A DNA stretch of 63,355 bases, taken from IMG/VR virus record IMGVR_UViG_3300025674_009014. One strand, 5' to 3'. Every line of letters begins with the position of its first letter. Within the stretch, counting starts at the first letter, position 1. This document shows positions 5 to 63,355 of this stretch, one piece after another. Below the pieces are notes generated by a model. It ran no database searches and had not been told where the DNA came from. It was given only the letters and a program-made list of their open reading frames with translations. Origin of the DNA: an uncultured virus (IMG/VR IMGVR_UViG_3300025674_009014). Its lineage: Duplodnaviria; Heunggongvirae; Uroviricota; Caudoviricetes. A program made the position numbers and the translations under genes.

Positions 5-3000
5 ATGAACAAATTAAAATTATCTTTAATTACTTCTTGCTACAATGCAGAAAAATTTATTGATGAAACTGCAGAATCTATATTATCTCAAAATTATGAT
101 AATTGGGAATGGTTGATATCTGATGATTTTTCAACGGATAACACTTATCAATCTATTGAAAAAATTAGTCAAAAAGATAATAGAATAAAAATAATTGTTC
201 CTAGATATAAAAAAGAAATTTGGTGGAATCCGCAGACTCATGCTAATGGTGACATTGTTTGTCATATAGATTCTGATGACATTCTGTTACCGAATACTTT
301 AGACAGAATTAACTATTATTTTAATTTGTTTCCTGAAAGTGTTTTGATGCACTTTAATGCAAACAAATATTTTGATGAATTTCCAAAAAATCCTAGAGAA
401 GACTTTTTAAGTAATTTCAAGGATAATGTTTTTATGACAACTGATAATGATTCTTTTCTGGAAGGCTTTGAAAAACTATGGCCGAATCGAACAAACATTT
501 TCGGCTATCTAAGAATTTTTAGAAATTTACCTGGAATTCAATTTCCAGTACATGAAGATGGTGACGCATGTTCGTCTAATGATGGCCAGTGGTTATTGAT
601 GTTGGAAGAGAGGGGTAAATGGGTCACAATTCCTAGGACCACTTATCTCGCAAGAGATCATGGAAATTCAGAAAATTATAGAAATTGGAATCCAAGAGGT
701 GAAGCACAACTAGCAATAGATGCTAGGAAAAGAAGAAAAGAATTTATTTTAGAATATCCAAGAAATATTAAATATTTTGATGATATTTATGATGCGGCAG
801 AATCAACATACACATCATTATTGAATCATGAAAATGAATCTAAAATAATCAGTTTTTGTAATTTTAATTATGATGCTCAAAAACAAGATAAAATTTTAAA
901 ATTATTCTATGATCATGAAATATATTTTGATTACTATGGAAATGTTGATTACTTTTATATTAAAATTAATTTAGAAACTAAACCGAATGATATAAGTTTC
1001 TTTATCAATATGATTGAAGAACAAAATAAAAATTCATGCGAAATAGTGTTATTTTGTGATAATTCTCATTTAATGAGAAATAATAGAACCCATGAAGATA
1101 TTTTGTTAAATATTAATAATTTATTGACAGAAATGGGTTATCATTTTTTGTGGTATAATAAAGACAATAGATTTACTATTGTTACAAATTCTAAACATGA
1201 AAATAAGAAGGTAATCGAAGTTAAAGAACAAGATTTTGAAGAAAAAAAATCACATAATGAATTAAATATTGTTGAAGCATTTGAGAAATTTGATGAATTA
1301 AATATTTTACAAATACATTCTGGTTGTGGAATTGAAATTCCTCCAAAAGGATATGGAGGAGTTGAGGAAGTTATTGGTCAGTATATAAATGCTGGTAAAA
1401 GAAGAGGTCACAATGTACAATTAAAGTATCTAGATTATATAACACAAACCGATTTAGAAGAGTTTGATGTTTTTCATAATCATATGGCAAATTTTAATGA
1501 TTTATTGAAAAATAGATTTATTCCATATATACACACTGTTCATGATGCCTGGGTAGGATTACAACAAAAATATAGTCCTTCTTACAATTTAATAAAATCT
1601 ACTATTAATAATTCGATTTTAAGTTTAACACCTATAGAGAATTTTATTTCATATTTTGACGCAAAAGACAAATTATATCATTTACATCATGGTGTAGATA
1701 CTAATTTTTATTATCCAAACTATGATAAAATTAAAGGAGAGAGATTAGTTTGTGTAGGAGGTGGGGATGATAGAAAAGGATTTCATTTAGCTATTCTTGC
1801 CGCACATAAACTAGGGTTACCTATTACTATTATAGGTGCTGATTCTATACACGATGATTACAATAAAGTTTTTTATCAAATTTATGAAGATTGTAAAAAT
1901 GATATTGAAATAAATTTATTGGGCAATGTATTAAAAAAAGATTTGAGAAAAATTTTAGCAGAACAGGATATTATAATACATCCAGCATCCATGGAAACAG
2001 GACAACCTTGCTTAGGTGTTCTTGAGGGAATGGCATGTGGTTTACCAGTAGTCGGAACTTTACAGGATGAGATGGAAATATCTGGTTTTTATCAGTGCGA
2101 TAGAACTGTTGATAGTATTGTTAATGGGATCAAGCACCACTTGAATAATCTAGATGCTTCATCAAATGAAGCAAGAAATTATGCGGTAAGCAGGAACTGG
2201 GATAATATATTTTTAAAATTAGAAAAATTTTATTATCAGGCCAAAGAATTAAAAAACAATGTTCCTTTTAAAATGGGCGATAGATTAATTTTTACATACA
2301 ATAATGATTTAAAAAATATTAATTTTGATGAATTCAAAAAAACAAATTTTGATATAACTATGAATCCTTATCCGAGAGTTGACATAAAAGGAAACGGTGA
2401 TGAAAAATTTATAGTTAGATTTTCAGATAAAGAGAGTGGACAGATTCATTATGAAAATGTGATAGGGGTGAATTGTTGGGCCGCATCATCTTTGGCCTAT
2501 TATGTGCCTTGGAAAATAGAAATATTCGAAGAAGAAACCGAAAAATTAGTTCATTATTATGAGACTGATTTAAAAGATAAAAAGGTTTTTATTTGGATTG
2601 ATTCTTCAGCAATGGGAGATAATTTGGCGTGGATGCAACCAATTGAAGAATTCAGAAAAAAACACAATTGTAAGATGATATGTAGCACCTTTTTCAATGA
2701 ATTATTTGAAAATGAATATCCTGATATTAAATTTGAGGCTCCTAATTCTGGATATAAAGATTTCGATTATCAATATAGAATTGGATTTTTTGAAAAATGC
2801 GAATTATCTCCTGTCGATTGTAAAGAAGTATCTCTTCAAGAGTTATGTGCACGAATATTAGGTTTCGATGATTGGGTTGAAAAACCATCTAAAATAACGG
2901 TTTATGAACAAGAAAATGAACTGGAAAAACCTTATGTGGCAATTGGCGTTCAGTCTACAGCACAAGCAAAATATTGGAATAATCCTGGTGCTTGGGATAA

Positions 3001-3448
3001 AGTTGTTGAGTATATAAAAAATAAAGGTTATGATGTTGTATGTGTCGATAAACACGGATCATTCGGTCAAGGCGAATATTTCAATTTAAGTCCTAAGAAT
3101 GTTATACCGAGACACGAAAGAACACTAAATCAAACAATAGCGACAATTGATAAAGCGAAGTTTTTTATAGGACTAGGTTCTGGATTGTCTTGGTTGGCAT
3201 GGTCTCTAAATAAAGATGTGATATTAATCTCAGGTTTTAGTAATCCATTATCTGAATTTTCTACAAAATGTCATAGAATTTTTAATGACAAAACTTGTAA
3301 TAGCTGCTATAATAGGCATAAGTTTAATCCTGGAGATTGGCTATGGTGTCCTGATCATAAAGGCACAGAAAGGATGTTTGAATGCACTGAAAATATAACT
3401 CCCGAAATGGTATTCGAAAAGATTGACAATTTAATAGAAATGGAATAA
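5..3448 (+). CDS. Multidomain glycosyltransferase: GT2 + GT4 + Aah/TibC-family protein O-heptosyltransferase
   Basis: N-terminal GT2 (SLITSCYNAEKFI...DDFSTD, DSDD). Central GT4/GT-B (IPPKGYGGVEE...HPASMETGQPCLGVLEGMACGLPVV). C-terminal Aah/TibC signatures (SAMGD, QSTAQAKYWNNP, FIGLGSGLSWLAW, ISGFS, CNSC..WCP..FEC). ATG at 5; the track's TTG at 2 is at the window edge. Confidence 0.88.
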   Translation: MNKLKLSLITSCYNAEKFIDETAESILSQNYDNWEWLISDDFSTDNTYQSIEKISQKDNRIKIIVPRYKKEIWWNPQTHANGDIVCHIDSDDILLPNTLDRINYYFNLFPESVLMHFNANKYFDEFPKNPREDFLSNFKDNVFMTTDNDSFLEGFEKLWPNRTNIFGYLRIFRNLPGIQFPVHEDGDACSSNDGQWLLMLEERGKWVTIPRTTYLARDHGNSENYRNWNPRGEAQLAIDARKRRKEFILEYPRNIKYFDDIYDAAESTYTSLLNHENESKIISFCNFNYDAQKQDKILKLFYDHEIYFDYYGNVDYFYIKINLETKPNDISFFINMIEEQNKNSCEIVLFCDNSHLMRNNRTHEDILLNINNLLTEMGYHFLWYNKDNRFTIVTNSKHENKKVIEVKEQDFEEKKSHNELNIVEAFEKFDELNILQIHSGCGIEIPPKGYGGVEEVIGQYINAGKRRGHNVQLKYLDYITQTDLEEFDVFHNHMANFNDLLKNRFIPYIHTVHDAWVGLQQKYSPSYNLIKSTINNSILSLTPIENFISYFDAKDKLYHLHHGVDTNFYYPNYDKIKGERLVCVGGGDDRKGFHLAILAAHKLGLPITIIGADSIHDDYNKVFYQIYEDCKNDIEINLLGNVLKKDLRKILAEQDIIIHPASMETGQPCLGVLEGMACGLPVVGTLQDEMEISGFYQCDRTVDSIVNGIKHHLNNLDASSNEARNYAVSRNWDNIFLKLEKFYYQAKELKNNVPFKMGDRLIFTYNNDLKNINFDEFKKTNFDITMNPYPRVDIKGNGDEKFIVRFSDKESGQIHYENVIGVNCWAASSLAYYVPWKIEIFEEETEKLVHYYETDLKDKKVFIWIDSSAMGDNLAWMQPIEEFRKKHNCKMICSTFFNELFENEYPDIKFEAPNSGYKDFDYQYRIGFFEKCELSPVDCKEVSLQELCARILGFDDWVEKPSKITVYEQENELEKPYVAIGVQSTAQAKYWNNPGAWDKVVEYIKNKGYDVVCVDKHGSFGQGEYFNLSPKNVIPRHERTLNQTIATIDKAKFFIGLGSGLSWLAWSLNKDVILISGFSNPLSEFSTKCHRIFNDKTCNSCYNRHKFNPGDWLWCPDHKGTERMFECTENITPEMVFEKIDNLIEME

Positions 3449-3451
3449 AAT
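3423..3451 (+). promoter_or_regulatory. Sigma70-like promoter TTGACA-N17-TAAAAT
   Basis: Near-consensus -35 (3423-3428) and -10 (3446-3451). It overlaps the ATG at 3450, so the downstream ATGs at 3474/3480 may be used. Confidence 0.45.
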
Positions 3452-4091
3452 GAATGAAGAAAATGTAGCAGAGATGTTGATGAATCCTAATTTTGCATCA
3501 TTAGTTGCTGAAAAACTTTTGTCCGCTGCTCCGTCAGAAGGACACACTGAAGAAGAGAAATGGTCTTTAGAAGATAAAGGATTTTATTTTCTATTTGATG
3601 AGATATACTCAGAATCTGTTTTGGGTGTAATTCAATGGATCCTTGAAAATAATTTTAGAAAAATTAAAAGACCAGAATTTTTGACTTTGTGTATAAATTC
3701 TCCGGGTGGAGACATGACATCGGCTTTTGCTTTGATAGATGTTATGAAAGGCTCATCTATTCCTATTCATACGATTGGATTAGGAATGATTGCTAGTGCA
3801 GGGTTATCAATTTTTATGGCAGGGAAAAAAAATCATAGATTGTTAACACCAAATACTAGCATATTATCACATCAGTATTCTTGGGGATCTTATGGTAAAG
3901 AACATGAACTCTTTGCTGTACAAAAAGAGTATGATTTAACTACGGAAAGAATGATAAATCATTATAAGAAATGCACAGGAATTAGTGATGATGATATTAG
4001 GAAATTTTTATTACCGCCTCATGATGTTTGGTTATCTTCTAATGAAGCTTTAAAATATGGTATATGTGATGAAGTTAAAGAAATATCTTAA
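3450..4091 (+). CDS. clpP: ClpP-family serine protease subunit
   Basis: INSPGG, IASAG (catalytic Ser), ILSHQ (His), HDVWLSSNEALKYGICDEV (Asp). Confidence 0.85.
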   Translation: MNEENVAEMLMNPNFASLVAEKLLSAAPSEGHTEEEKWSLEDKGFYFLFDEIYSESVLGVIQWILENNFRKIKRPEFLTLCINSPGGDMTSAFALIDVMKGSSIPIHTIGLGMIASAGLSIFMAGKKNHRLLTPNTSILSHQYSWGSYGKEHELFAVQKEYDLTTERMINHYKKCTGISDDDIRKFLLPPHDVWLSSNEALKYGICDEVKEIS

Positions 4092-4954: not shown

Positions 4955-5875
4955 ATGGCTTCTCTATCAGAACTCAAGAAAAACAGAAATTCTTTCCTAC
5001 AAAAACTCAACAAGGAAATCGAAAAAATCGATACTCCTTCAGAATCTAAAAGTTATATCGATGATCGCTTCTGGAAACCAGAAGTAGATAAAAGCGGTAA
5101 TGGTTATGCTGTTATTCGTTTTTTACCTCCCGTTCAAGGAGAGGATGTTCCTTGGGCTCGTGTTTTCAATCATGGTTTTCAAGGCCCAACAGGTTTGTGG
5201 TATATTGAAAATTCTCTCACCACTCTTGGTAAAAAAGATCCAGTTTCAGAATATAACACTCAATTGTGGAATTCTGGTATTGAGGCGAATAAAGAAATCG
5301 CAAGAAAGCAAAAACGTAGATTGACTTATATCAGTAACATTTATGTTATTTCAGATCCTAAAAATCCACAAAATGAAGGAAAAGTTTTTCTCTATAAATT
5401 TGGTAAAAAAATCTTTGATAAAATCAATGATCTCATGAATCCTGAATTTGAGGATGAAACTCCTGTAAATCCTTTTGATTTGTGGGAAGGTGCGAATTTT
5501 AAATTAAAAATTCGTAAGGTAGAGGGATATCAAAATTATGATAAATCCGAATTTGATTCTCCAGGTCAATTGTTGGAGACTGACGATGAACTAGAGGCAG
5601 TTTGGAATTCTCAGTATCCTTTGGTAGAATTTTTGGCAGAGGATAATTTCAAAACATATGATGAACTCAAAGAGAGACTTGATATGGTTCTTGCATTAGA
5701 CACTCCAAAAATTGAAGAGCCTGTTGTAATGACTGCTCAAAAACGTCCTACAGCTGAAGAGGAGATGCAGCAAGAGAGAAAACCGATGCCTGCATATGCC
5801 TCTTCTAGTAGCATGGACACAGATGATGACGATGAGGATATGTCTTATTTCGCTAGATTGGCTGAAGAAAATTAA
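4955..5875 (+). CDS. 32: Single-stranded DNA-binding protein gp32
   Basis: DDRFWKPEVDKSGNGYAVIRFLP, HGFQGP, YKFGKKIFDKI, GANFKLKIRKVEGYQNYDKSEF, acidic tail. Confidence 0.97.
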   Translation: MASLSELKKNRNSFLQKLNKEIEKIDTPSESKSYIDDRFWKPEVDKSGNGYAVIRFLPPVQGEDVPWARVFNHGFQGPTGLWYIENSLTTLGKKDPVSEYNTQLWNSGIEANKEIARKQKRRLTYISNIYVISDPKNPQNEGKVFLYKFGKKIFDKINDLMNPEFEDETPVNPFDLWEGANFKLKIRKVEGYQNYDKSEFDSPGQLLETDDELEAVWNSQYPLVEFLAEDNFKTYDELKERLDMVLALDTPKIEEPVVMTAQKRPTAEEEMQQERKPMPAYASSSSMDTDDDDEDMSYFARLAEEN

Positions 5876-8568
5876 TACAGCAGACTGTCTCTAAATGAGA
5901 CTGAAGAATTCGGTTCAGGTGGTATTTCTGTTACATTGTACTCCTGAACCGATATTCTTTTGTTGTCCACAAAATTAGAATTTGTGGCAGGAGGAATCAT
6001 CATAGGACTCATTGTCTGTTCTTTCATTAAACTATTTTCTTTTTGCATTTTAAAAACATGACCAAGTGCTAATAATTGTTCTCTATTAAAAAGTATTTCT
6101 GGATTATTAATTCGAGATTCACCGGCTATAAAAAGTTCAGGTTTTGTAAATACCGCACCATTTTTATTCATTGGTAATTTTAATATATTATTTTCAATAA
6201 CATCTGCAATAATTTCTCTTTTATCGTTCATTCCAGGTCTAGATTTGTAGAATTGATCGTATTTTCCTTCTTTTCTTGCCATTTCATCAGCAATTCTATA
6301 TAATACACTTTGAGCGCCTATGGGATTCATATTATGATGAAACGGTAATAATAAACTAATTGATTGACCTTCTTTATAATTACGTATGTCAGAATATGTT
6401 CCTCCAGAAGTTATATCGTATGCTTTTTTGTTGTGTACTATTTGTATATCTTTTTTAAATACTAAATCTCTCTGTTCTTTATCATAAGTGAATATTTCAC
6501 TTAAATTTGATATATTCATATTAGTGAATTTATTAATTTCATCCACAACACCTTTTAATATAGGGTTACTTTGTAAAATATTTTTTTCTTCGTTTAATTT
6601 TTCTGGGTTTTCTTGATTTAAATTTTTATCTGTATTATCAATGGATAATGGTTTTTCTCCTGCAGGATCAACTAATCTCATATTATCATTAAAATCATGT
6701 CCTTTAATTGATGTGGGTCTTTCTTCTTGTTTACCTTCTCTGATTTTGTTTTCTAATATTTGTTGTGCAACAACATTTGCAGTTCTATCCATATTTTCAT
6801 CATCACCTTCATCATCAAATTTTTGCACTGTTTCATTGGAATATACTAATTTGTTTAAAGATTCAAGCAATAATTGATTTGAATTTTGATCTATTTTACT
6901 GAAAGATGTGCCCGCTGGTTGAACGTTTCCTAAAGTATCGGTCATTGGCACTTTTGTTACACTCTGTCCAGTCGAAAAATCATATGCTATAGCATCACTT
7001 AGTTTAGTTAATGACGGATCATTGGTTTTTTCTAGTATATTCGATGCTAGATTCATGTAATTTCTACTATCTGCCTCAAACATTGCATCAATATTAGCAT
7101 CATTATTTTCTTCTGGATTGCTTAAAAGATTTAAAGAATTTGATATTTGATCATCTTGAATTCCTTCATTTCTAAACTTTTCAGTTGCCATGCCTATATC
7201 TTGATTATACTGATTTAGTAATAGAAGATCCTCAGGTGTCATAACATTTTGAGCATTGTTTCCGTCTTTTAAACCATATTTGTCTAGTAATTCTCTTTTA
7301 TTTTTAGCAGCGTCAACATATGACTTTGCTGCTTTTTCTGCTTCACTTTCATCTGATAAAACAGCGCCTAATGCTAAACCTATTGCTCCTCCCAATAAAG
7401 CACCTGCAATCATACCAATAGGAGATCCTAGAGATCCTATGAGAGCTCCTAATTTCATTCCTGCTATTGCACCCCCATAACTTCCTAGGGCAGCCAATGT
7501 TATTGATTTGACATTTAATTTAAATTTATCATTGTTTATAACTCCAAATACAGCACCTAATGCGCCACCTAGTAATATACCCGGTAAACCAAATCTAGAT
7601 CCTATCATTGCACCGAAACCTGCACTGATGAACAAACTTTCAAACATGCCGGTTTCGCCTTTTATTATTTTTTGCGTAGAATTTTCGCCCAGTATTGCTT
7701 GAAGAATTGATATTGCTCCTCCAAACATTATTCCAGGAATGATTCCTCTTATACCTGCAAGCGCAAATCCTGCTGCTGCTCCTATCATCAATTTATCATC
7801 TAAATCAGTTTCTTTAAAAAATGTGTCGATGAATTTTCCAACACCACTTAGAATATTATCTTCTTCAAATCCTGCTTTTATTGATTCGAATAATTTTGGT
7901 CCTAAAAGTAATGCGGCAATACCTTTGGTTATGCCTAATCCGGCAACACCTAAACTGGCAGGTATTAAACTTGAAATTAAAGATTTACCTTTAGGACCTA
8001 AAAAAATTGAACTTAGCATGTCAGTTAAAAAACCTCCTAAACCTTTGCTGGGTAAATTTGGTATTTTGCGGTCAAAAAATGGTGTAGATTTTTGTTTTTC
8101 CTGTCTATCTTCTTCGTCCTGATATCTTTTTCTATCAAATATTAACAATAATCTTTCTAACAAACTGTTAGTTTTATTCTGATTTTCTTTTGTTGGTGCA
8201 TTTTTGTTTGAAGTTTCAGGCTTATTAGCGGGTGAAGTTTCAGGCTTATTAGCGGGTGAAGTTTCAGGCTTATTGGCAGGTAAAGTTTCAGGCTTATTAG
8301 CGGGTGAAGTTTCAGACTTATTGGCAGGTAAAGTTTCTGTAGAATCTATGTTCAATAATTTTAGATTATCATTGATATCTTGAAAAATTAAATTGTTAGA
8401 TTTTTCAATTTCAAAAATTTGTTTGATGTTGGACGATATTTCTTTAATAGAACCTATTATATTTTTTGATAAATCATTATTGAAATATTCATCAAAATTG
8501 TTGTTTGTTTTATCGGAAGGTTTAAAATTTTCTCTTGTATAATTTAATAAATTTGTTATGGTTGCCAT
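5872..8568 (-). CDS. Probable tail tape-measure protein (gp29 equivalent)
   Basis: Helical N-terminus; long Gly/Ala hydrophobic stretch (GAAAGFALAG...GAIAGMKLGALIG); tape-measure-like C-terminal motif GAVFTKPELFIAGE..PE; directly follows the gp26/gp51 pair. Confidence 0.65.
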   Translation of the reverse strand: MATITNLLNYTRENFKPSDKTNNNFDEYFNNDLSKNIIGSIKEISSNIKQIFEIEKSNNLIFQDINDNLKLLNIDSTETLPANKSETSPANKPETLPANKPETSPANKPETSPANKPETSNKNAPTKENQNKTNSLLERLLLIFDRKRYQDEEDRQEKQKSTPFFDRKIPNLPSKGLGGFLTDMLSSIFLGPKGKSLISSLIPASLGVAGLGITKGIAALLLGPKLFESIKAGFEEDNILSGVGKFIDTFFKETDLDDKLMIGAAAGFALAGIRGIIPGIMFGGAISILQAILGENSTQKIIKGETGMFESLFISAGFGAMIGSRFGLPGILLGGALGAVFGVINNDKFKLNVKSITLAALGSYGGAIAGMKLGALIGSLGSPIGMIAGALLGGAIGLALGAVLSDESEAEKAAKSYVDAAKNKRELLDKYGLKDGNNAQNVMTPEDLLLLNQYNQDIGMATEKFRNEGIQDDQISNSLNLLSNPEENNDANIDAMFEADSRNYMNLASNILEKTNDPSLTKLSDAIAYDFSTGQSVTKVPMTDTLGNVQPAGTSFSKIDQNSNQLLLESLNKLVYSNETVQKFDDEGDDENMDRTANVVAQQILENKIREGKQEERPTSIKGHDFNDNMRLVDPAGEKPLSIDNTDKNLNQENPEKLNEEKNILQSNPILKGVVDEINKFTNMNISNLSEIFTYDKEQRDLVFKKDIQIVHNKKAYDITSGGTYSDIRNYKEGQSISLLLPFHHNMNPIGAQSVLYRIADEMARKEGKYDQFYKSRPGMNDKREIIADVIENNILKLPMNKNGAVFTKPELFIAGESRINNPEILFNREQLLALGHVFKMQKENSLMKEQTMSPMMIPPATNSNFVDNKRISVQEYNVTEIPPEPNSSVSFRDSLLY
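8210..8337. repeat. 24-bp tandem repeat, about 5.3 copies, encoding [S/L]PANKPET in the tape-measure candidate
   Basis: GAAGTTTCAGGCTTATTAGCGGGT-like units starting at 8210, 8234, 8258, 8282, 8306, plus a partial unit at 8330. Confidence 0.93.
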
Positions 8569-11186: not shown

Positions 11187-12119
11187 ATGCCATTAACAAA
11201 TCAATCAGATATTGCATTTAGAAATTTACCTTTTCGTAGTTTACCGAATGGTCAGGATAGTACAATCAATGCCAGATTTCCTTATAATTTAATTCATTCG
11301 GGTGGCACTGGAGATAATGAAAAATTTTGTCTTTTTATAATTAAGTCCAGAACAGTAGGTAATGCATTGAGACCTGCAGGATATATTGCTTTACCATTTC
11401 CTCAAGAATTGGATGATTCTGTAAATGTAACCTACACTTCTTCTAGTTTTGGAATAGCAGGAGCGGCAGCAACTGGATCTTTAACGAATAATTTTGAAAC
11501 AGATGCTGATAAATTAACCAATGCTTTGAAAAAGGGATTAGGATCTTTCAATGAGGATGCTTTTATTAAAGTTGCTACTGGATTAGCACTAAAAGCAGCA
11601 CCAGGATTAAAAGGTGCTGTTAATAATGCAACTGGAACTATAGAAAACCCTTTTTTGACGAATACATTTTCAGGAGTAGGATTTAGAGAATTTAGTTTTA
11701 ATTTCAATTTGATACCTAAAAACGATAGGGATCAAATACAATTGAGTAATTTGTTATATCTTTTTAAAAAAGCAATGATGCCTACAGACAAAATAACCAG
11801 AGATGGTTTTGCTGGAAATGGATTAGAATTATTCAAAAACACTGGTGTGCAGCAAATGCCTGATTTATTTGATGTTTTATTTTTTCCTACAACACAAAGT
11901 TTTAGAAATACTGATAGTGGAAATTTATTGTTGAAAATTAAAGATTCGGCGATAACGAGATTTGATGTTAATTTTTCAGGCGATACACCAAGCCCAGTAT
12001 TTTATGAAAATGATTCTCCTTTTTCCGCAGCTATTTCGATGACATTAAAAGAATCTGTCATATATACCAGAGAAAGGTGTCAGGAAGATTATTCTGACAT
12101 TTTAAATGAATTATTTTAA
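11187..12119 (+). CDS. 48: gp48-like baseplate tail-tube cap, paralogue 1
   Basis: ENPFLTNTFSGVGFREFSFNFNLIPKN, FKKAMMP, terminal MTLKES. Confidence 0.75.
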   Translation: MPLTNQSDIAFRNLPFRSLPNGQDSTINARFPYNLIHSGGTGDNEKFCLFIIKSRTVGNALRPAGYIALPFPQELDDSVNVTYTSSSFGIAGAAATGSLTNNFETDADKLTNALKKGLGSFNEDAFIKVATGLALKAAPGLKGAVNNATGTIENPFLTNTFSGVGFREFSFNFNLIPKNDRDQIQLSNLLYLFKKAMMPTDKITRDGFAGNGLELFKNTGVQQMPDLFDVLFFPTTQSFRNTDSGNLLLKIKDSAITRFDVNFSGDTPSPVFYENDSPFSAAISMTLKESVIYTRERCQEDYSDILNELF

Positions 12120-12130
12120 AAAAACTAAAC

Positions 12131-13261
12131 ATGTATCAAAAATATCCAGATCCTACAACTTTTATAAGTAAGTTAACATCAAGTCAAAACGTTTATAGAT
12201 ATCCTAAAAATGTTGGAGATAAAAATGAAGGTCTTCATCATTTTATGATTATAAAAGAATATAAATTTAATGAAGAACAGAAAGATAATGATTTATTTAA
12301 TGGCATAACATCATTTGAAAATAATATAACCTTTTCAGATGCATCTTTTACTGATTTGTATAGACAAATAAATTCTTTTATATTGTATCTTCCTTCGGGA
12401 TCATTGAGAACAGTTTATACTGCTGATTATCAGGATGTAGAAATTGGTTTTTTTGGTAATATTTTACAGAACAATTTAGGATTTTTAACAGATGAATTAA
12501 AAAGTGCTTATCAATCATATGTAAACAGTGAAGAAGGATTTATGGGCAAATCTCTTGATTTTTATTCTTCTATAGGAAGTTCTCTCATGGATGTTGGAGA
12601 AGTTGCATATAAAAATTATATGAAAGATGTATATGATAGATATCGTTACAATGCTTTGCAATTTGGAGGGGCATTTCTCAGTCCATTTACAGATGTATCG
12701 GCAAAAGATTTTGCTACGCAAACAATGAGAAAACTTCAAAATCCATATACATCTTTGGTTTTCACTGGAGTCAAAAGTTTGAGACAGCATAGTTTTTCAT
12801 TTGATTTTAGACCTAAAAGTAAAGATGATTCTAAAAATGTGTTAAGAATTATAGCAAAATTGAAAATGGGAATGTTGCCATCATTACCTACAAATAATGC
12901 TGGTGACAGTTATACTGTGCAAATTGACGATCCATCATTGGCAGATGTTGAGAAACATGAAAAATTGAACCCGACTGAGCAAAAAAAGTCCAAAGATTTC
13001 ACACTAACTGTTCAGTCAAATATGCCTTCTTTATTTTTTAAAATTCCAAATGTATATACAATTAGATTTTATGATTTTAACGGCAATTCTTCTGGAAATG
13101 CATATTTACATTCTATAGGTCAATCTGTATTGGAGTCTATTTCTGTGAAATATGGAAATTCTTTTTTTGAAAGTACCGCACTTCCAACAAATATTACGAT
13201 GAATTTATCATTCAAAGAAAATTTTGCCATAAACAGACAACGCATAGAAGAAGGATATTAA
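12131..13261 (+). CDS. gp48-like baseplate tail-tube cap, paralogue 2
   Basis: YRYP, LYLP, NPYTSLVFTGV.SLRQHSFSFDFRPKS, SVLESISVKY, MNLSFKE..INRQRIEEGY. Confidence 0.75.
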   Translation: MYQKYPDPTTFISKLTSSQNVYRYPKNVGDKNEGLHHFMIIKEYKFNEEQKDNDLFNGITSFENNITFSDASFTDLYRQINSFILYLPSGSLRTVYTADYQDVEIGFFGNILQNNLGFLTDELKSAYQSYVNSEEGFMGKSLDFYSSIGSSLMDVGEVAYKNYMKDVYDRYRYNALQFGGAFLSPFTDVSAKDFATQTMRKLQNPYTSLVFTGVKSLRQHSFSFDFRPKSKDDSKNVLRIIAKLKMGMLPSLPTNNAGDSYTVQIDDPSLADVEKHEKLNPTEQKKSKDFTLTVQSNMPSLFFKIPNVYTIRFYDFNGNSSGNAYLHSIGQSVLESISVKYGNSFFESTALPTNITMNLSFKENFAINRQRIEEGY

Positions 13262-40906: not shown

Positions 40907-43900
40907 ATGTCACTATCTGAAGCACTTACGGATATAGAATTAATTAATACGTTTGAGGACTGGAGGCTCGAGACAAATAAAATCATCAAAGTCATCATGG
41001 AATCTAGTGACGATGATGTTTTAAATGGAATCGTGACAACAGATATTTCAGGTGCCACGTATATAAATGTTGTAAATTCTAATACAATAACATCTAACAT
41101 TGCAACTGGTGTAAATCTTGTATACACTGGTTCTGGTTCCAGAGTAAATTTTCAAGATGCTGATGTTATTTCATTGGGTATTGCTAGAGAAATAAAAGTT
41201 AATGGAGGACCAGTAGTTAGTGGTTCAAATCCAGATTCTTATATACAAAGTGTTCAAATAAGAGATAGTGAGATTTTATTGAATGGACAGGCATTAAGAT
41301 CCGATGGAACATCAGAAATAGACTTTACTGAAGCAACAATAACTAATTTAGGAGAAGTACAGAAATTAAATGTTTACCCTGTTGTTCCGATAGGTGGCAC
41401 AGGAACTGCAGGAACATTACACGGAGTCAGTTTAAAAATAAATAGCACCTACACCGGTACTTTAACAGTTCAAGATGGTACTCATAATTTTACAGGTGCG
41501 GTGTTACTAGGTCCCGAGATAGATTCAGGAGATTTTCATTCCGGAGTTATACACAGCTCTGATATTACAGTAAATACTGGTTCTTATTTTATATCAAATA
41601 CTAGTTCGATGCTTGCGACTAATGATAGTGCAAATGTTGCTGTAGGTAAATTTCCAGAATGGGCAGGAATAGGATCTTCTAGAATACCAACATCTTCTTC
41701 TGGTAGATTGCATATAAGAAGAGATTTTTCAAATCCCAATACTTTAAAAACTACTGTTGATACAAGAGGTGATGAATTTGTAATAGAAGGTAACACATCA
41801 GTCGGTATGACTTTATTGGCAAATAATGCTGCAAATTCATATCTTTTCTTTGGTGATAGCACTACACCAGCACAAGGATACATTAATCATAGTAATCCGA
41901 GCAATTATTTAACTTTCGGAACAAACAGTGCCGATAAGATGAGAATATATTCTGAATTTGGAGGAAGTGTACAAATACCAGGTGCAGGTCAGTTTGAAAC
42001 TATAAGTGGAAAATTACATATTCATCAATCTTCCACGGATTTAGCGCACGGTATTTTTGTGAATTCTGATAGAGGAGAATATAGTGCGGTCAGAGTTGAG
42101 AGTAATCAAACTACTGCAAATGTGTTAAACATTACAACCGCTTCTTTGACATCAGGTTCGATGGTTAATTTAAGATATGAACCTTCAACGATAAGTTTTA
42201 CAGGATCATTATTACAAATACATGATGACAATCAAACCGGTGATACTAGATCTTTGATTAAAATAGAGCAAAGCCATCCTCAAGCAACTGGCGTCAGGTT
42301 AATGGATTTATATACTCAATCAGGAAAAGGAATTTATATAAATCAAGATTCTGATAATTATACTTTATCAATTGATGCTGAAAATACTACAACGAATACT
42401 ATTGATATTTTAGTCGATAGTTTGTCTTCAGGTACTGGATTACATTTAAGATCTACGGCAGATCATACTTCAAATTTGGTTAGTTTTATTTCAAATGGTA
42501 CCGGTACGCAAGGTACTACACTGTATGTGAAAACAAGCGCCATAGATTTAGTTGATACAGTTTTAGTTGAAAATGATTCTTCTAAAATATTTCAAATTGA
42601 ATCCACGGGCAATGTTGGTATCAACATAAACGAACAAGAAGTTATTGTAAAGACAGGATTTAATACAGTAGGCTTTGCCTATGCTAATACTGCACTGTAC
42701 ACTCTGCATGTTGGTGGAACATTAGGGGTAGAAGCCAATTCTATATTTAATGGTTATGAAACAAGAGTTAATGCAAATCTTGTTGTACAGAATGCAAATA
42801 CTACAATTGCTGTTTTTGATGCTACTGATTCAGGATATTCCATTATTGGTATAGGTGAGAATGCAACTGAATTCCAAGACACTACATTATACTTATCTTA
42901 TCCAGGAGGTGACCGACAGGGTTATTCTTATATGGGAATGGGTCAAATTTTATTCGATCCTCCTCCAGGATCAGAGTTACAACAATATAGACCGAGAAGA
43001 TGGGCTATCGAATTTAATCAATATAACAATAGTCTTTATTTTCCAGGAATATTGACTGTTGCGAATAATGTGGTAGTGTCAAAAAATTTAAGTGTAGGAA
43101 GACATATAACAGGTGAGAGAACTATTACGATTGATGGTGATGCTAGTTTTGCTGATGATAGCGTTTTATTCATTGAAGAAGTGAATGGAAATGGATCCGT
43201 TTATTTTAAACACACTGCTGAATTTGCCAGTAATACACACATAAAGAAAAATCTGAGAGCTGCCACTGCAAATGTCGATGGAGAAATGACAGTAACCGGT
43301 AATACGGTAATTGGTCCTGATGGAACTTTTCATGTTGACACTCAAAGTTATATGATTGGAGAATCTACATTTAGATCAGATGTACTTATGGATGAAGATT
43401 TGACAATTACAAATGATTTAATTGTTGATGGTAATTTGATCACCTTTACAAGCAAAGATTCTAATTTCATAGTAAATGGTAATTTTCAATACACAGGTTA
43501 TAATGTTTTTGTTGAACACACTACATCAAATACCAATATTAGAGGTACGGTAAATTTAAAAGGTAATACTACTATTCATGCTGAAAATGTTTATATTAGC
43601 AGTACAACATCCAATACATTTACGCAAGGAAATATAACAGCCAGAGGAAATGTCACGCTCAACGGGACTAATTTAGACATTGCATCAAACACAGATATTG
43701 ATGGAACATTATATAATCAAGGTAACGTTTCATTGGTTAGCATCGATACTGGTGCTAGAACAGATGCCATTGTCAAAATCAATAGATCTACTGATCCAAC
43801 CCAGCATGGTAATACTGTTATTTTGGATAAATTGACAATAACTGGAAATACAAAAATTATTGAAAATCTTGTTGTTGATGGAGAAGTTAGTTTAAGTGGA

Positions 43901-48899: not shown

Positions 48900-52458
<3,559 letters not shown>

Positions 52459-57268: not shown

Positions 57269-60200
57269 ATGTCAAATGATAATAATAAGCAATTAAAACT
57301 AAATGAAGTTTTAGCTGCATCTCTAGCATACACTCAAAAAGAATTTAAAAGAGCTAAGCAAGAGCTAATAAAAGATATAAAAGAAATTTTTGATCCTGAA
57401 ACTGGTGAGAAGATAAAAGTTCTTGAAATAGCAGGTGAGCAAGGTCCTAGAGGTGAAAAGGGTGAAAAAGGTTTAGATGGTTCTCCTGGTGAAAGAGGAG
57501 AAAAAGGTGAGAAAGGTGATCCAGGTAAAATAGGGCCACAAGGACTTCAAGGGCCACAAGGACCTCAGGGAGAAATTGGACCACAAGGTCCTCAGGGTGA
57601 TGTAGGTCCAAAAGGCGATGACGCACAAGTAGAACCATTAAAGCAAGAGTTAGAAAAATTAAAAACTGTTGTAAAAAATATTGGTTCACAAGCAGCATCT
57701 ACTGCGCAAAAAGTATCGACTGGTTGGGGAGATACTTATGGAGGAGGTGGCGGTAGTGATATTGTATCAATAGGTAAAAACTTAGAAGTCACATCTAACA
57801 CAGTACAACTATATTCAAATGTAGAATATACTCCAACAAAAACTACCTTAAAATTTAAATCAATAAAAACAGGTAGTGGTCTTTTTGCTGCACAGAATAA
57901 TTCTTCCATAATTATATCTTTTGATCCTGATTTATTGTCAATAAATGATGATAATAATTTAGTCGTCAATCAATCATTGATTATCGGACAGACTCAATCT
58001 TTAAAAATTGGTGAAGGTACACAAAATGCTGTATTAGGTTTTCACAGCACCTCTGGTAATGATTTTACTATTAGAGATAGTAATGGTGACAGAATATTTT
58101 CAGTTCTTGAGTTAAAAGAAGTCGATGAAAGTTTTCTGGGCTCTGAAGGAGATGTTTTAAGGGTTACGTCCAATAATACTTTAGAGTTTTCTCCTGCCTC
58201 GAAACCTATAGAGATTTCTGAAACGCAGGTTTCTGGAAATACAATCTCAAATTTAGAACACATATCCGTAAATTCTGATGATGGTTTTTATTTAGAAAAT
58301 GGTCAAAACAATTCTTCAGTTATTATTAGATCAAATATATTAGATCAGATAAGACCATTAACTTCAGGATCATCAGGATCAGCAGGAACTTCAGGATCAG
58401 CAGGAACTTCAGGAACTTCAGGATCATCAGGAACCTCAGGAGTAGATGGAAATTTTGGAGGCGCTTCTTTTGAATATGATTATGATGATTCTATCATCGG
58501 TGATCCTTCAACTGGAATTTTTAGATTCAATAGCACATCATCTGCATCTATAACTGAATTGATTATAAATCACTTGGATAATAATTCTAGTGATATAGAA
58601 TCATTTCTACACACTATAGCTGGATCGACAAGCACGATTAAGGGTCATGTTAGAATTTCTCTAAAAGGTGATAATTCTGCATACATGCTATTTACCATTA
58701 GTGATTCTGTCGATGGTGGTGCTGGTAATAATTTTGATATAGTATCAATCAATTATGTTACTTCTTCTAATGAAATTCCATTTAATGATGGCGATAGCTG
58801 TGTGGTTACATTTGCTAGAACGGGTGATGCAGGAACATCTGGTACTTCTGGTTCATCCGGTACAGCAGGATCTTCTGGTTCATCTGGTCGAGATGCAAGT
58901 GCAGGATCATCAGGATCATCAGGATCATCTGGTACATCAGGAACTTCAGGATCTGTAGGTAGTGCAGGTAGTGCTGGATCATCTGGAAGTTCAGGTAGTG
59001 CAGGATCATCTGGAAGTTCAGGTAGTGCAGGATCATCTGGAAGTTCAGGTAGTGCAGGTAGTGCCGGATCAGCAGGTAGTGCAGGATCTTCAGGTTCAGC
59101 AGGTAGTGCAGGTAGTGCCGGATCAGCAGGTAGTGCAGGATCTTCAGGCTCAGCAGGTAGTGCAGGTAGTGCCGGATCAGCAGGTAGTGCAGGTAGTGCA
59201 GGTAGTGCTGGATCATCTGGAAGTGCCGGATCATCAGGTTCTGCAGGTAGTTCTGGTTCATCTGGTAGTTCAGGAAGTGCTGGAACTTCTGGATCGTCTG
59301 GACTAACATATGCAAGTTCTGGTTCATCTGGTAGTTCAGGAAGTGCTGGAACTTCTGGATCATCGGGAACTTCTGGATCATCGGGAACTTCTGGATCATC
59401 CGGTAGCGCTGGAAGTGCAGGAAGTGCAGGTAGTGCTGGTTCATCTGGTAGTTCAGGAAGTGCTGGAACTTCTGGATCGTCTGGATTAACATATGCAAGT
59501 TCTGGTAGCGCAGGTTCGTCTGGAACATCTGGTAGTGCTGGAACTTCTGGTAGTTCTGGTAGTGCTGGAACTTCAGGTAGTTCTGGTAGTGCTGGATCAT
59601 CTGGAAGTTCTGGATCTGCAGGTAGTTCTGGAAGTGCAGGAAGTGCAGGTAGTGCTGGATCATCTGGAAGTTCTGGATCTGCAGGTAGTTCTGGAAGTTC
59701 TGGATCTGCTGGTTCTGCTGGATCTGCAGGTAGTTCTGGAAGTTCTGGATCTGCAGGTAGTTCTGGAAGTTCTGGATCTGCAGGTAGTTCTGGAAGTTCT
59801 GGATCTGCAGGTAGTTCTGGAAGTTCTGGATCTGCTGGTTCTGCTGGATCTGCAGGTAGTTCTGGAAGTTCTGGATCTGCTGGTTCTGCAGGTAGTTCTG
59901 GAAGTTCTGGATCTGCCGGTTCTGCTGGATCTGCAGGCAGTTCTGGTTCATCTGGTACTTCTGGCACATCTGGTTCTGCTGGTACTTCTGGGGTTGATGG
60001 AAATTTTGGTGGCGCAGGCTTTGAATTTGAATACGAGAACGTACAAAGTCCATTCAATACATCATTTCCTTATGGTTTATTTCGATTAAATAATGGAACT
60101 CAAAACTTATCAGATAAAATATACATTAAATTTTTTGATAATAATTATACAGATTTACAAAATTTTCTTAGAACAATAGATGATTCAACTAGCACCGTAA

Positions 60201-63200
60201 AAGGTCATTTAAAGATTTCTAAAAAAGGACAAGAAGAAGATTTTTTATTATTTGTAATAACTCAAAATTTAATAGAACATCCTCAAGAATCTTACTATGA
60301 ATTAAGTATTCAAATATTAGAAGAATCTTCAACAATTCCTTTTAACGATGAAGATATTTGTGTATTAACTTTTGCAAGAACTGGTGATAAAGGTGAAAAA
60401 GGAGATGATGGATCATCAGGATCTTCTGGTACATCTGGAACTGCAGGAACAGCAGGATCTGCAGGAACTTCAGGATCTTCTGGTCGAGATGCAAGTGCTG
60501 GTTCTTCTGGATCTGCAGGTACCGCAGGATCTTCTGGTAGTTCGGGTTCTGCTGGTTCTTCAGGAACTTCTGGTAGTTCAGGAAGTTCAGGAACTTCAGG
60601 ATCATCTGGTCGAGATGCAAGTGCGGGTTCCGCCGGTACATCAGGATCCTCTGGAAGTTCAGGTTCCGCCGGTACATCAGGATCCTCTGGAAGTTCAGGT
60701 TCTGCTGGCAGTGCTGGATCTTCTGGTAGTTCAGGTTCTGCTGGCACATCAGGATCCTCTGGAAGTTCTGGATCCTCTGGAAGTTCAGGTTCTGCTGGCA
60801 GTGCTGGATCTTCTGGTAGTTCAGGTTCTGCTGGCACATCAGGATCCTCTGGAAGTTCTGGATCCTCTGGAAGTGCTGGATCAGCAGGTAGTGCTGGAAG
60901 TGCTGGATCAGCAGGTAGTGCTGGAAGTGCAGGATCTTCTGGATCCTCAGGATTTGACGGTGATCGATATAGTACAATTTCTTATACAACAAATGTTGTA
61001 GATGTTGTTGGCTTTAAAACTTTTATACTTGAAGATATTGATAGACAATATGCTCCACGACAAGAAGTATTAATTTCATACGGAAATGATTATAGAACTT
61101 ATTTTCAAGGTGTAGTTGTCAGTTATAATGATAAAACAGGTGTATTAGTAATAGATCCTGAAGAAGCGGAGATGTCATCGTATCATCTTCAATTAAATGA
61201 TAGAAGAGATGAAATTCATCAAATAGCTTTAGAAAATGATGGATATTTGTTAAATGAACAAGACAATAGTAAACTTGAGACTGAAAATTTAATAAAAACA
61301 CTATCACTAGAAAATGATGAACAATTACTACTAGAAAACGGATCAGAAAAACTTATAATAGAAGAAAAAGAATATGATTTTTCTAGTGGAATGTATGTAG
61401 GAAATTTTGATAAATTAGTTTTAGAAAATGGTGACAAATTTCTTTTTGAAGAGGCTGAAGGTATTCATGATCTTCTGATTGAGGATGGTAGCAATTTTAT
61501 ATTAGAAAATACATTTTCGTTCTGGTATGTGAATCTAAGAGGCGCTCAGGGTATTCCAGGGTCATCAGGTTCATCAGGTAGCAGTGGCAGTGCAGGCAGT
61601 TCCGGAAGTTCTGGATCTTCTGGAAGTTCGGGAAGTTCAGGTTCATCAGGTAGCAGTGGCAGTGCAGGTAGTTCTGGTAGTGCAGGTAGTTCTGGTAGTG
61701 CAGGTAGTTCTGGCAGTGCAGGTAGTTCTGGAAGTTCAGGAAGTGCAGGATCTTCTGGTTCATCTGGTCGAGATGCAAGTGCAGGATCTTCAGGATCGTC
61801 AGGCACATCTGGAACTTCAGGTTCTACAGGAACTTCAGGTTCTACAGGAACTTCTGGATCATCAGGTAAAGATGGAACTTCTGGAAGAGATGCTAGTGCT
61901 GGTACTTCTGGTTCGGCAGGAACTTCAGGAGAAGCACCATACGCATATGTCTATAAAGTAACAGTTAATTTAGATGAAGGTGGTGAGAATGTTTTCACAT
62001 TTGATGAAGTTCCTTTAGATTCATTATTACTGTATAAAGGTTTTAAATATAAATTTGAACTGGATGATCCTTCAAATTTAAATTATGAATTATCTTTATC
62101 TAATTATTTTGAGGGTATTCATAATCCAGGATCTATTGGACAAGATGATATAGATGTTACATATGGTATCGAAAGAATTGGTACTCCAGGAACACCTGGT
62201 GCTTATATCGCATATCAAGTTCCTTTTTCATCGAATCCTATAATTTATTATTATAATAAGGTTTCTCCTGGAAATTCCAATGAAATAATAATTGAAAGAA
62301 TTTCTTCAGGCACATCGGGATCAGCAGGTTCATCAGGCAGTGCTGGATCAGCAGGTTCATCAGGCAGTGCTGGAAGTGCTGGATCTTCTGGTTCATCTGG
62401 AAGTTCTGGTAGTGCCGGATCAGCAGGTAGTGCCGGATCAGCAGGGTCTGCTGGTAGTGCTGGTAGTGCCGGATCAGCAGGTAGTGCAGGAAGTGCTGGT
62501 AGTGCTGGATCAGCAGGTAGTGCAGGAAGTGCTGGCAGTGCCGGATCAGCAGGTAGTGCAGGATCAGCAGGTAGTGCAGGATCAGCAGGTAGTGCGGGAA
62601 GTGCTGGTAGTGCAGGATCAGCAGGTAGTAGTGGTACATCTGGTGTAGATGGTGGTACATACGTACACAGTCAAACAACTCCTAGTAGATATTGGGTCAT
62701 AAATCATAATTTAAATACCAGTAGACCTGTAAATGTTATATTCACTGATTCTGATTATGTACAAATATTTCCGCAAACTGTAAGATTTACAACAAGAAAT
62801 TCTATTGAGATCATATGGCCAGTGGGGGTTAATCAAACTGGTTATGCAACTGTAACTTTTGGGGACAGTTCTTCAGGATCAGCAGGTAGTGCAGGTAGTT
62901 CTGGTTCTGCAGGTTCTTCTGGCTCTACAGGAACATCTGGATCTTCTGGTCGTGATGGTGGTGCATTTATTCATCGACAAGATATAGCATCCACAACTTG
63001 GATAGTTAATCACTATCTAGGCACTAGACCTTTAAGTTTTGCCATCACAGATTTAGATTTTAATGTAATTTTAACTGATAAAGTTTCTTATATCGATAAT
63101 AATACAGTTCAAATTACTTTTCCTAAACCCACAACAGGATATGTTGCCTTAACATTCGGAGATTCATCTTCAGGATCAGCAGGTAGCAGTGGTAGTGCAG

Positions 63201-63355
63201 GTAGTGCAGGATCAGCAGGTAGTGCAGGGTCTGCCGGTAGTGCTGGATCAGCAGGTAGTGCAGGGTCTGCCGGTAGTGCAGGGTCTGCCGGTAGTGCCGG
63301 ATCAGCAGGTAGTGCAGGTAGTGCAGGTAGTGCAGGATCAGCAGGTAGTGCAGGG
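57269..63355 (+). CDS. Giant collagen-like, Gly-Ser/Ala/Thr-rich fibre protein (>=2029 aa, 3' end beyond the window)
   Basis: ATG 4 nt after the portal stop; frame stays open to the window end. MSNDNNKQLK..., a classical GPQ/GEK collagen tract, then (GSA/GSS/GTS)n blocks alternating with globular domains. Confidence 0.9.
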   Translation, partial: MSNDNNKQLKLNEVLAASLAYTQKEFKRAKQELIKDIKEIFDPETGEKIKVLEIAGEQGPRGEKGEKGLDGSPGERGEKGEKGDPGKIGPQGLQGPQGPQGEIGPQGPQGDVGPKGDDAQVEPLKQELEKLKTVVKNIGSQAASTAQKVSTGWGDTYGGGGGSDIVSIGKNLEVTSNTVQLYSNVEYTPTKTTLKFKSIKTGSGLFAAQNNSSIIISFDPDLLSINDDNNLVVNQSLIIGQTQSLKIGEGTQNAVLGFHSTSGNDFTIRDSNGDRIFSVLELKEVDESFLGSEGDVLRVTSNNTLEFSPASKPIEISETQVSGNTISNLEHISVNSDDGFYLENGQNNSSVIIRSNILDQIRPLTSGSSGSAGTSGSAGTSGTSGSSGTSGVDGNFGGASFEYDYDDSIIGDPSTGIFRFNSTSSASITELIINHLDNNSSDIESFLHTIAGSTSTIKGHVRISLKGDNSAYMLFTISDSVDGGAGNNFDIVSINYVTSSNEIPFNDGDSCVVTFARTGDAGTSGTSGSSGTAGSSGSSGRDASAGSSGSSGSSGTSGTSGSVGSAGSAGSSGSSGSAGSSGSSGSAGSSGSSGSAGSAGSAGSAGSSGSAGSAGSAGSAGSAGSSGSAGSAGSAGSAGSAGSAGSAGSSGSAGSSGSAGSSGSSGSSGSAGTSGSSGLTYASSGSSGSSGSAGTSGSSGTSGSSGTSGSSGSAGSAGSAGSAGSSGSSGSAGTSGSSGLTYASSGSAGSSGTSGSAGTSGSSGSAGTSGSSGSAGSSGSSGSAGSSGSAGSAGSAGSSGSSGSAGSSGSSGSAGSAGSAGSSGSSGSAGSSGSSGSAGSSGSSGSAGSSGSSGSAGSAGSAGSSGSSGSAGSAGSSGSSGSAGSAGSAGSSGSSGTSGTSGSAGTSGVDGNFGGAGFEFEYENVQSPFNTSFPYGLFRLNNGTQNLSDKIYIKFFDNNYTDLQNFLRTIDDSTSTVKGHLKISKKGQEEDFLLFVITQNLIEHPQESYYELSIQILEESSTIPFNDEDICVLTFARTGDKGEKGDDGSSGSSGTSGTAGTAGSAGTSGSSGRDASAGSSGSAGTAGSSGSSGSAGSSGTSGSSGSSGTSGSSGRDASAGSAGTSGSSGSSGSAGTSGSSGSSGSAGSAGSSGSSGSAGTSGSSGSSGSSGSSGSAGSAGSSGSSGSAGTSGSSGSSGSSGSAGSAGSAGSAGSAGSAGSAGSSGSSGFDGDRYSTISYTTNVVDVVGFKTFILEDIDRQYAPRQEVLISYGNDYRTYFQGVVVSYNDKTGVLVIDPEEAEMSSYHLQLNDRRDEIHQIALENDGYLLNEQDNSKLETENLIKTLSLENDEQLLLENGSEKLIIEEKEYDFSSGMYVGNFDKLVLENGDKFLFEEAEGIHDLLIEDGSNFILENTFSFWYVNLRGAQGIPGSSGSSGSSGSAGSSGSSGSSGSSGSSGSSGSSGSAGSSGSAGSSGSAGSSGSAGSSGSSGSAGSSGSSGRDASAGSSGSSGTSGTSGSTGTSGSTGTSGSSGKDGTSGRDASAGTSGSAGTSGEAPYAYVYKVTVNLDEGGENVFTFDEVPLDSLLLYKGFKYKFELDDPSNLNYELSLSNYFEGIHNPGSIGQDDIDVTYGIERIGTPGTPGAYIAYQVPFSSNPIIYYYNKVSPGNSNEIIIERISSGTSGSAGSSGSAGSAGSSGSAGSAGSSGSSGSSGSAGSAGSAGSAGSAGSAGSAGSAGSAGSAGSAGSAGSAGSAGSAGSAGSAGSAGSAGSAGSAGSAGSAGSAGSSGTSGVDGGTYVHSQTTPSRYWVINHNLNTSRPVNVIFTDSDYVQIFPQTVRFTTRNSIEIIWPVGVNQTGYATVTFGDSSSGSAGSAGSSGSAGSSGSTGTSGSSGRDGGAFIHRQDIASTTWIVNHYLGTRPLSFAITDLDFNVILTDKVSYIDNNTVQITFPKPTTGYVALTFGDSSSGSAGSSGSAGSAGSAGSAGSAGSAGSAGSAGSAGSAGSAGSAGSAGSAGSAGSAGSAGSAG
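57434..57620 (+). repeat. Classical collagen Gly-X-Y tract (GEQ GPR GEK ... GPQ GPQ GDV GPK)
   Basis: About 20 consecutive triplets in the frame of ORF 57269. Confidence 0.9.
58361..63355 (+). repeat. Low-complexity 9-nt-period repeats encoding GSA/GSS/GTS triplets, in seven blocks
   Basis: Approximate blocks: 58361-58440, 58829-59994, 60409-60955, 61549-61930, 62306-62645, 62870-62950, 63170-end. Confidence 0.93.

Follow-up and report, generated by a model that had tools for sequence, protein, structure and literature searches.

Serine-rich repeat proteins of streptococci and staphylococci are glycosylated in two stages, in which GtfA/B prime Ser residues of the repeats and GT4- and GT2-type glycosyltransferases (GTs) encoded together with them extend the glycan. 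A second described system comprises TibC and Aah of the BAHT family (TIGR04414; structures 4RAP and 4RB4), which combine a beta domain, a GT-B-like core, a thumb region and a four-Cys iron finger with a catalytic Asp and Thr, Lys and Trp donor contacts. Among phages, the accessible text of two reports places virion glycans mainly in mycobacteriophages (PMC12619734, PMC11256854); in one of these, Che8, phage GTs glycosylate the phage's own structural proteins (Freeman et al. 2023). The usual interpretation of GT clusters in phages is modification of host surfaces or DNA, as far as the accessible text of PMC12801897 and PMC7824862 goes. Here, we analyze 63,355 nucleotides from an uncultured virus (IMG/VR IMGVR_UViG_3300025674_009014; the whole stretch is henceforth termed the window), which form part of a T4-like myovirus genome with gp59, gp32, baseplate, neck, terminase, sheath, tube and portal genes, and whose first gene fuses GT2 and GT4 domains to an Aah/TibC-like domain. 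We propose that this enzyme O-glycosylates repeats in the phage's own Ser-rich fibre(s), a reading to which we assign a probability of about 0.62.

The gene is a single open reading frame (ORF) encoding 1147 amino acids (aa). Its anatomy was derived from Pfam and two AlphaFold models and is as follows:

5..3448, + strand: multi-domain glycosyltransferase, GT2 - alpha/beta domain - linker - GT4 - Aah/TibC-like (Pfam, TIGR04414, AlphaFold)
8..757, + strand: GT2 domain, GT-A fold, residues about 2-251, DxD at D89 (PF00535, structure search)
767..1198, + strand: alpha/beta domain without family match, residues about 255-398 (AlphaFold, conserved in clade)
1295..2254, + strand: GT4 domain, GT-B fold, residues 431-750, with K591 and E664-X9-E674 (PF00534/PF13692, structure search)
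2345..3445, + strand: Aah/TibC-like domain, N-terminal beta domain first (TIGR04414, Foldseek, residue columns)

The C-terminal part shares with TibC and Aah all of the elements named above, at 36-39% identity and with a gap-free alignment of the thumb region, and the AlphaFold model, with a mean predicted local distance difference test (pLDDT) score of 95, lets its beta domain begin at about residue 781 (nt 2345). Residues 799-1142 match TIGR04414 with 318 bits (cut-off 200), the sequence match to TibC (4RAP/4RB4) reaches about 1e-60, and Foldseek aligns the model to TibC with E 3e-37, a template modelling (TM) score of 0.88 and a root-mean-square deviation (rmsd) of 2.5-3.0. We considered and rejected an identity as a lipopolysaccharide (LPS) heptosyltransferase of family GT9. 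WaaC and WaaF have a GT-B core in common with the domain, which also gives a weak match to the GT9 family PF01075 (7.8e-9), yet their structural similarity is limited to TM 0.43-0.53 at 12-14% identity, and the LPS heptosyltransferase model TIGR02193 scores 26 bits against a cut-off of 185. Plasmid Aah is 39% identical over 353 aa, whereas WaaC yields a single match of 49 aa. PHROGs returned no family for the domain. In a tree, four E. coli LPS GT9 proteins were separated from every TibC-like row (Shimodaira-Hasegawa-like approximate likelihood ratio test, SH-aLRT, 97), and Aah/TibC together with 12 bacterial rows formed a branch that excludes the window protein (SH-aLRT 100) and lies amid many viral lineages; this was a quick IQ-TREE run on the 93 rows left after 120 domains had been thinned at 85% identity, its sample was seeded with the window protein, and its deeper forks are weak.

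An earlier note on this DNA, made from the sequence alone, had proposed a GT2-GT4-protein O-heptosyltransferase fusion and had named grouping with LPS GT9 enzymes as an outcome that would count against it. Both the hidden Markov model (HMM) search and the comparison of a predicted structure with TibC that it suggested were carried out, and HMM, structure and tree alike place the domain with Aah/TibC. Its description of one polypeptide with GT2 and GT4 ahead of an Aah/TibC-like domain is likewise confirmed, and its domain list is correct for all three members but omits the alpha/beta domain. The latter is modelled with pLDDT 79-97 over residues 261-390 and found neither a Pfam nor a structure-atlas match; from its strand order, read from DSSP only, it resembles a cut-down methyltransferase fold. 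A disordered linker (residues 400-428) follows. For the N-terminal domain, the PF00535 match (residues 7-129, 4.5e-20), the GT-A fold and a DxD conserved in all 13 clade rows aligned agree with family GT2, and the model of residues 2-251 resembles chondroitin polymerase, heparosan synthase and SpsA (VIA Z about 18-20). The PF00534 match (residues 579-685, 6.2e-9), a two-Rossmann GT-B fold (versus 7fg9: VIA Z 28, rmsd 2.6, 298 residues aligned) and basic (RK590-591) and acidic (E664) donor motifs identify the GT4 domain, whose acidic spacing is E-X9-E where E-X7-E is usual.

The fusion could in principle be an assembly chimera or a cut-off ORF, both of which we rejected. The same unbroken ORF occurs in two contigs 99% identical to the window (L003 and L004), and in L004 the stop codon of the preceding gene ends at window base 1, so the ORF is complete. 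Independent contigs from sequencing run X9 span positions 1-2438 and 2435-3712 without gaps, which argues against a chimera. Fifteen public DNA runs from nine studies each contain 76% or more of the words sampled from the gene, and one of these runs may be the window's own source; they are labelled freshwater, estuary, seawater or marine plankton, or carry no label. The gene is absent from the nearest record, G001 (25 kb). In two runs, RNA-library contigs match short parts of the gene, which does not demonstrate transcription.

Several features set the window enzyme apart from TibC and Aah. It is phage-encoded, lies behind 775 aa that include GT2 and GT4, and falls outside the Aah/TibC clade. 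An autotransporter gene is not adjacent: ClpP-like, gp59 and gp32 genes lie downstream, and the upstream side, seen in L004, holds a GT4-FkbM gene and another that matched nothing in Pfam. Within the active site, the equivalents of TibC Asp110 (D872 in the MGD motif), Thr226 (T985), Lys230 (K989) and Trp305 (W1063) are all kept, as are the four predicted iron-finger Cys (C1098 and C1101 in CNSC, C1115 in WCP, C1127 in FEC), but Arg286 is replaced by Thr1044 and Pro300 by Gly1058. The "full" Aah/TibC signature claimed earlier thus stands for the beta domain, the MGD motif and the Cys residues and fails at these two positions. In TibC, Arg286 bonds adenine N1 and confers adenine specificity, the R286A exchange abolished or largely reduced activity, and Pro300/Ser294 is the heptose stereo-selector of TibC/Aah, according to the accessible text of PMC4358343. 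The four donor and catalytic residues are present in all 75 distinct viral domains (window included) and the four Cys in 73 of them, while Arg at the 286 site is found in seven and absent from 68. Gly occupies the Pro300/Ser294 site in 62 of the 75; both plasmid Aah/TibC-type proteins have Ala there, so this site varies within the family. An Arg eight residues before the 286 site (R1036) is present in 23/23 clade members and 0/93 others and may, judging from this pattern, stand in for Arg286. From its residues, the enzyme looks active. We classify the domain as a BAHT-like variant: it passes the family HMM but lacks Arg286, nesting in the clade and an autotransporter neighbour.

A further difference from TibC and Aah is a link to Gly-X-Ser repeat proteins. 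In the window, the candidate acceptor is this gene:

57269..63355, + strand: fibre-like ORF of more than 2029 aa, running past the window end, directly after the portal gene

It contains 298 X-S/T/A-G triplets (SAG 136, SSG 116, TSG 37) and 507 Ser, as well as a short GXY collagen stretch at residues 56-118. In the relative G057, the same fibre-like gene follows the portal gene and is succeeded by a second one; the ORF downstream of these two repeat fibres (L523 2-673) ends in many tandem C-x-C-N-F/Y-C repeats.

Co-occurrence of repeat and enzyme was assessed in both directions. At least 162 viral stretches were picked by the repeat pattern alone, and all 56 contigs of at least 30 kb were kept, 53 of them searchable. 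TIGR04414 matched in 24 of these 53 (15/26 and 9/27; 23 above cut-off) and in none of 45 controls (Fisher p 2e-8). The controls comprise 40 tRNA-picked and five portal-picked contigs of at least 30 kb, drawn from 80 listed for each and similar in median length; T4-portal-picked contigs were mostly too short, with 5/80 listed reaching 30 kb. Conversely, of 42 enzyme-bearing contigs 40 were searchable, and 25 of these contain the repeat, against 1/45 controls (p 4e-10). Among 50,697 named phage records, the enzyme is matched in four: Microcystis phage Mel-JY01 and a trio of huge records from uncultured phages, of which two share length and coordinates (735 kb). Long blastn matches to two repeat queries were confined to Mel-JY01 and the two 735-kb records, i.e., three of the four carriers, in a search that depends on codon usage and in which one of the queries missed Mel-JY01. 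The 805-aa TSG/SSG repeat ORF of Mel-JY01 (L001 635-3052, + strand) is unannotated, and PP395634.1 lists opposite-strand shadow ORFs in its place. In the 735-kb phage LR756501.1 (W02), the strict Gly-Ser/Thr repeat pattern has 1446 overlapping matches at several loci.

Bacterial genomes supplied 37 further loci, among them 22 with a non-Arg286 domain and 11 with Arg286. An ORF with GTS/GTA repeats, mostly the next gene, lies at 15 of the 22 non-Arg286 loci and at 0 of the 11 Arg286 loci (p 2e-4), and also at four loci lacking a residue call. The pairs come from Methylobacter and kin, Polaromonas-like genomes and a Binatia genome, and their repeat partners belong to several unrelated families; three loci (L255, L259 and L272) look like phage contigs binned into bacterial genomes. 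Pairs of a non-Arg286 enzyme and a small, exported or lipoprotein-like (GTS/GTA)n partner include:

L241, 6899-7759
L246, 6906-7883
L253, 9142-10035
L244, 9175-9540
L257, 1474-2292

Read by eye, the partners start with an apparent signal peptide in Methylobacter and kin and with an apparent lipoprotein signal in the Polaromonas-like genomes. After masking of the repeats, BLAST among 22 proteins found no matches between phage fibres, methanotroph exported proteins and Polaromonas-type lipoproteins, which indicates that the repeat is what these proteins share. In the Methylobacter luteus family (121 genomes), 17 genomes carry a divergent enzyme with scores of 113-335 bits, in three cases split or partial. 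A further two, at about 650 bits, were taken to be classical, their Arg286 state being assumed. The repeat pattern occurs in 13 of these 17 (10/14 without three seed genomes) and in 6 of the 104 others.

From these observations we infer the following course of events. The iron-finger Aah/TibC-type domain would place a first sugar, heptose or that of another nucleotide sugar, on Ser within the (Gly-X-Ser)n repeats of one or more putative structural, fibre-like proteins encoded by the phage itself, here the product of ORF 57269-63355. Modification would be cytoplasmic, in the host cell, and would precede or accompany assembly. GT4 and GT2 would probably extend the primed glycan, and the product of the upstream GT4-FkbM methyltransferase gene may cap it. 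Such glycans might serve the folding or stiffening of a proline-free fibre, protection from proteases, or adhesion. The logic would be that of the GtfA/B system with a different priming family and repeat, and here we see no accessory Sec system. It would also parallel Che8, with which we compare it by description: glycans there sit at the C-termini of capsid and tail-tube subunits (PMC12619734, PMC11256854, accessible text), while here an Aah/TibC-type enzyme would act on hundreds of repeat-fibre Ser. That all domains act in sequence on one glycan is possible, with the odds tilted somewhat against it. The earlier note had envisaged priming of Ser/Thr with heptose followed by extension with two further sugars; priming draws support from the TibC-type domain and the repeat link, while extension by GT4 and GT2 is less secure, as GT2 fusions are restricted to this clade and one relative (L018) has lost its GT4 motifs with its remaining domains intact.

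A series of observations weighs against fibre glycosylation. Enzyme and repeat gene are 54 kb apart in the window. Three enzyme carriers, LR756504 (636 kb), G063 and G085 (85% complete), lack the strict repeat; conversely, the repeat without an enzyme match is found in G010 (84% complete) and G033 (79% complete), and in 29 of the 53 repeat contigs overall, most of which are fragments. The repeat is seen in only one of seven close-relative contigs, of which G056 stops before the portal region, and near the enzyme in 0/28 close relatives versus 26/52 distant ones, counting only the DNA around the enzyme. In the genus of G143, the enzyme is confined to the seed genome, and 4 of 18 genomes without enzyme have the repeat pattern. 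The controls are unmatched for habitat, and kinship among the phages makes the counts non-independent; the p values are therefore overstated. The GT4 domain is degenerate in L018, Arg286, whose alanine mutant loses most TibC activity, is missing, and the known acceptors of TibC are autotransporter passenger domains of different structure (PMC4358343, accessible text). Finally, the case for protein glycosylation is built from sequence, model and co-occurrence.

Among the alternatives, the one that fares best, although we consider it unlikely, holds that the enzyme is a protein O-glycosyltransferase acting mainly on other virion proteins and that the repeats merely mark the same phage groups. 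Candidate acceptors exist in a Ser/Thr/Asn-rich ORF of 1348 aa (40907-44953) and in small fibre-like genes upstream in relatives, and the flanking of the GT cluster by opposite-strand genes in close relatives fits this view, as do the enzyme-bearing genomes without repeats. TibC, moreover, modifies Ser of passenger domains and not triplet repeats (PMC4358343, accessible text). What this alternative leaves unexplained are the bacterial two-gene pairs, whose partners have the GTS repeat alone in common. A second, rather improbable reading is that the cluster modifies host LPS or surface glycans for superinfection exclusion or grazer evasion, a role suggested for clusters in cyanophages and jumbo phages and the common reading of such genes (PMC12801897, PMC7824862, accessible text). 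GT2 and GT4 enzymes often act on LPS and capsule, and the weak PF01075 match points the same way; the structural scores, the SH-aLRT 97 split, the identity to Aah and the retained beta domain and iron finger argue against it for the C-terminal domain, leaving it to the GT2 and GT4 domains alone. DNA hypermodification by T4-type glucosyltransferase activity, for which the proximity of gp59 and gp32 and known DNA-glycosylating phage GTs (bioRxiv 2023.12.21.572611) could be invoked, is very improbable, because no DNA-modification gene was found among the scanned window ORFs, T4 alpha-glucosyltransferase ranks only 20th among the structural matches of GT4, and such a role would be at odds with the TibC fold and the repeat link. 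Equally remote is a domain impaired by loss of Arg286, the residue whose exchange cripples TibC (PMC4358343, accessible text), and serving GT4/GT2 as scaffold or peptide-binding module, given the invariant catalytic Asp, Thr, Lys and Trp, the R1036 conserved throughout the clade, and stand-alone non-Arg286 versions without other GT domains (L036, L039 and bacterial loci).

For fibre glycosylation as the preferred reading, the donor sugar is a separate matter. With Arg286 and Pro300 absent, an ADP-heptose donor and the host deduced from it are unproven; we give ADP-heptose about even odds. Gly-Ser/Thr repeat proteins as acceptors are favoured by co-occurrence. CDP- and UDP-heptoses exist and viral heptose enzymes occur (PMC11461863, accessible text). 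HldE-kinase-like genes were found in 5/38 enzyme-bearing phage records versus 1/45 controls (p 0.09, none above cut-off), gmhA-like genes in 2/22 such records, and hldE in all five bacteria carrying the enzyme-repeat pair; these counts are compatible with heptose and do not decide the donor. One enzyme-bearing phage, G065, has a long nucleotide-sugar cluster (L530 3191-14860) that includes a gmhA-like gene, its other genes being judged by eye. The Gram-negative, ADP-heptose-producing host proposed earlier depends on the unproven donor. Mel-JY01 has a cyanobacterium (Microcystis) as its recorded host and encodes ribosomal protein S21 (L001 22183-22410). The LPS of cyanobacteria is mostly heptose-free, and S21-encoding phages are typically tied to Bacteroidota; for both reasons the host inference made earlier is not safe. 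In view of S21, the Microcystis host on record might be worth verifying.

A scan of IMG/VR yielded 250 viral stretches encoding relatives of the C-terminal domain, 80 of which were kept for analysis, and by sequence the domain lies in a large radiation of aquatic phages outside the classical Aah/TibC clade. Among 30 homologues scanned, GT4 accompanies the domain in 23, a methyltransferase in nine and GT2 in six, all six being close relatives. GT4 is a separate gene beside the enzyme in L060 and L071, and GT2 a separate upstream gene in L075 and L079. In the 735-kb phage, a gene with the N-terminal motif of the L004 GT4-FkbM gene precedes the enzyme. PP395634.1 names the GT4-TibC-like fusion of Mel-JY01 "methyltransferase FkbM". 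Tandem TibC-like genes occur in L060 (6470-8511), L071 and L128, the second copy without the N-terminal beta domain.

Taken further, these data raise the tentative possibility that the Aah/TibC fold is mainly a phage family whose large non-Arg286 branch O-glycosylates a portable (Gly-X-Ser)n tag wherever it is present, in giant fibres of T4-like and jumbo phages from aquatic habitats as in small exported proteins of methanotrophs and Polaromonas-like bacteria, that multi-GT fusions build the full glycan, and that the pathogen heptosyltransferases are one offshoot. If the fibre reading holds, many large aquatic phages would carry heavily self-glycosylated fibres, with a bearing on virion adsorption, decay and grazing. 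The acceptors of the Aah/TibC family would then include another class, and its donors perhaps another nucleotide sugar; glyco-engineering could make use of a soluble enzyme that acts on a simple repeat tag. Mel-JY01 and Methylobacter luteus are named isolates with the enzyme beside a repeat protein, which makes the idea testable now. No publication describing phage homologues of Aah/TibC or the GTS-repeat link came up in our literature search, which left most subscription papers outside its reach.

Elsewhere in the window, the ClpP-like protease gene (3450-4091) directly behind the GT gene recurs in the closest relatives (L004, L006 and L007) and is absent from this place in L012, L018 and L020. 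A tape-measure-like ORF (5872-8568) contains a short ETSPANKP-type tandem repeat near its N-terminus, positions 11187-13261 hold a tandem pair of paralogues from the baseplate tail-tube cap family (phrog_230), and an opposite-strand HNH endonuclease (52033-52458) lies between the terminase and sheath genes.

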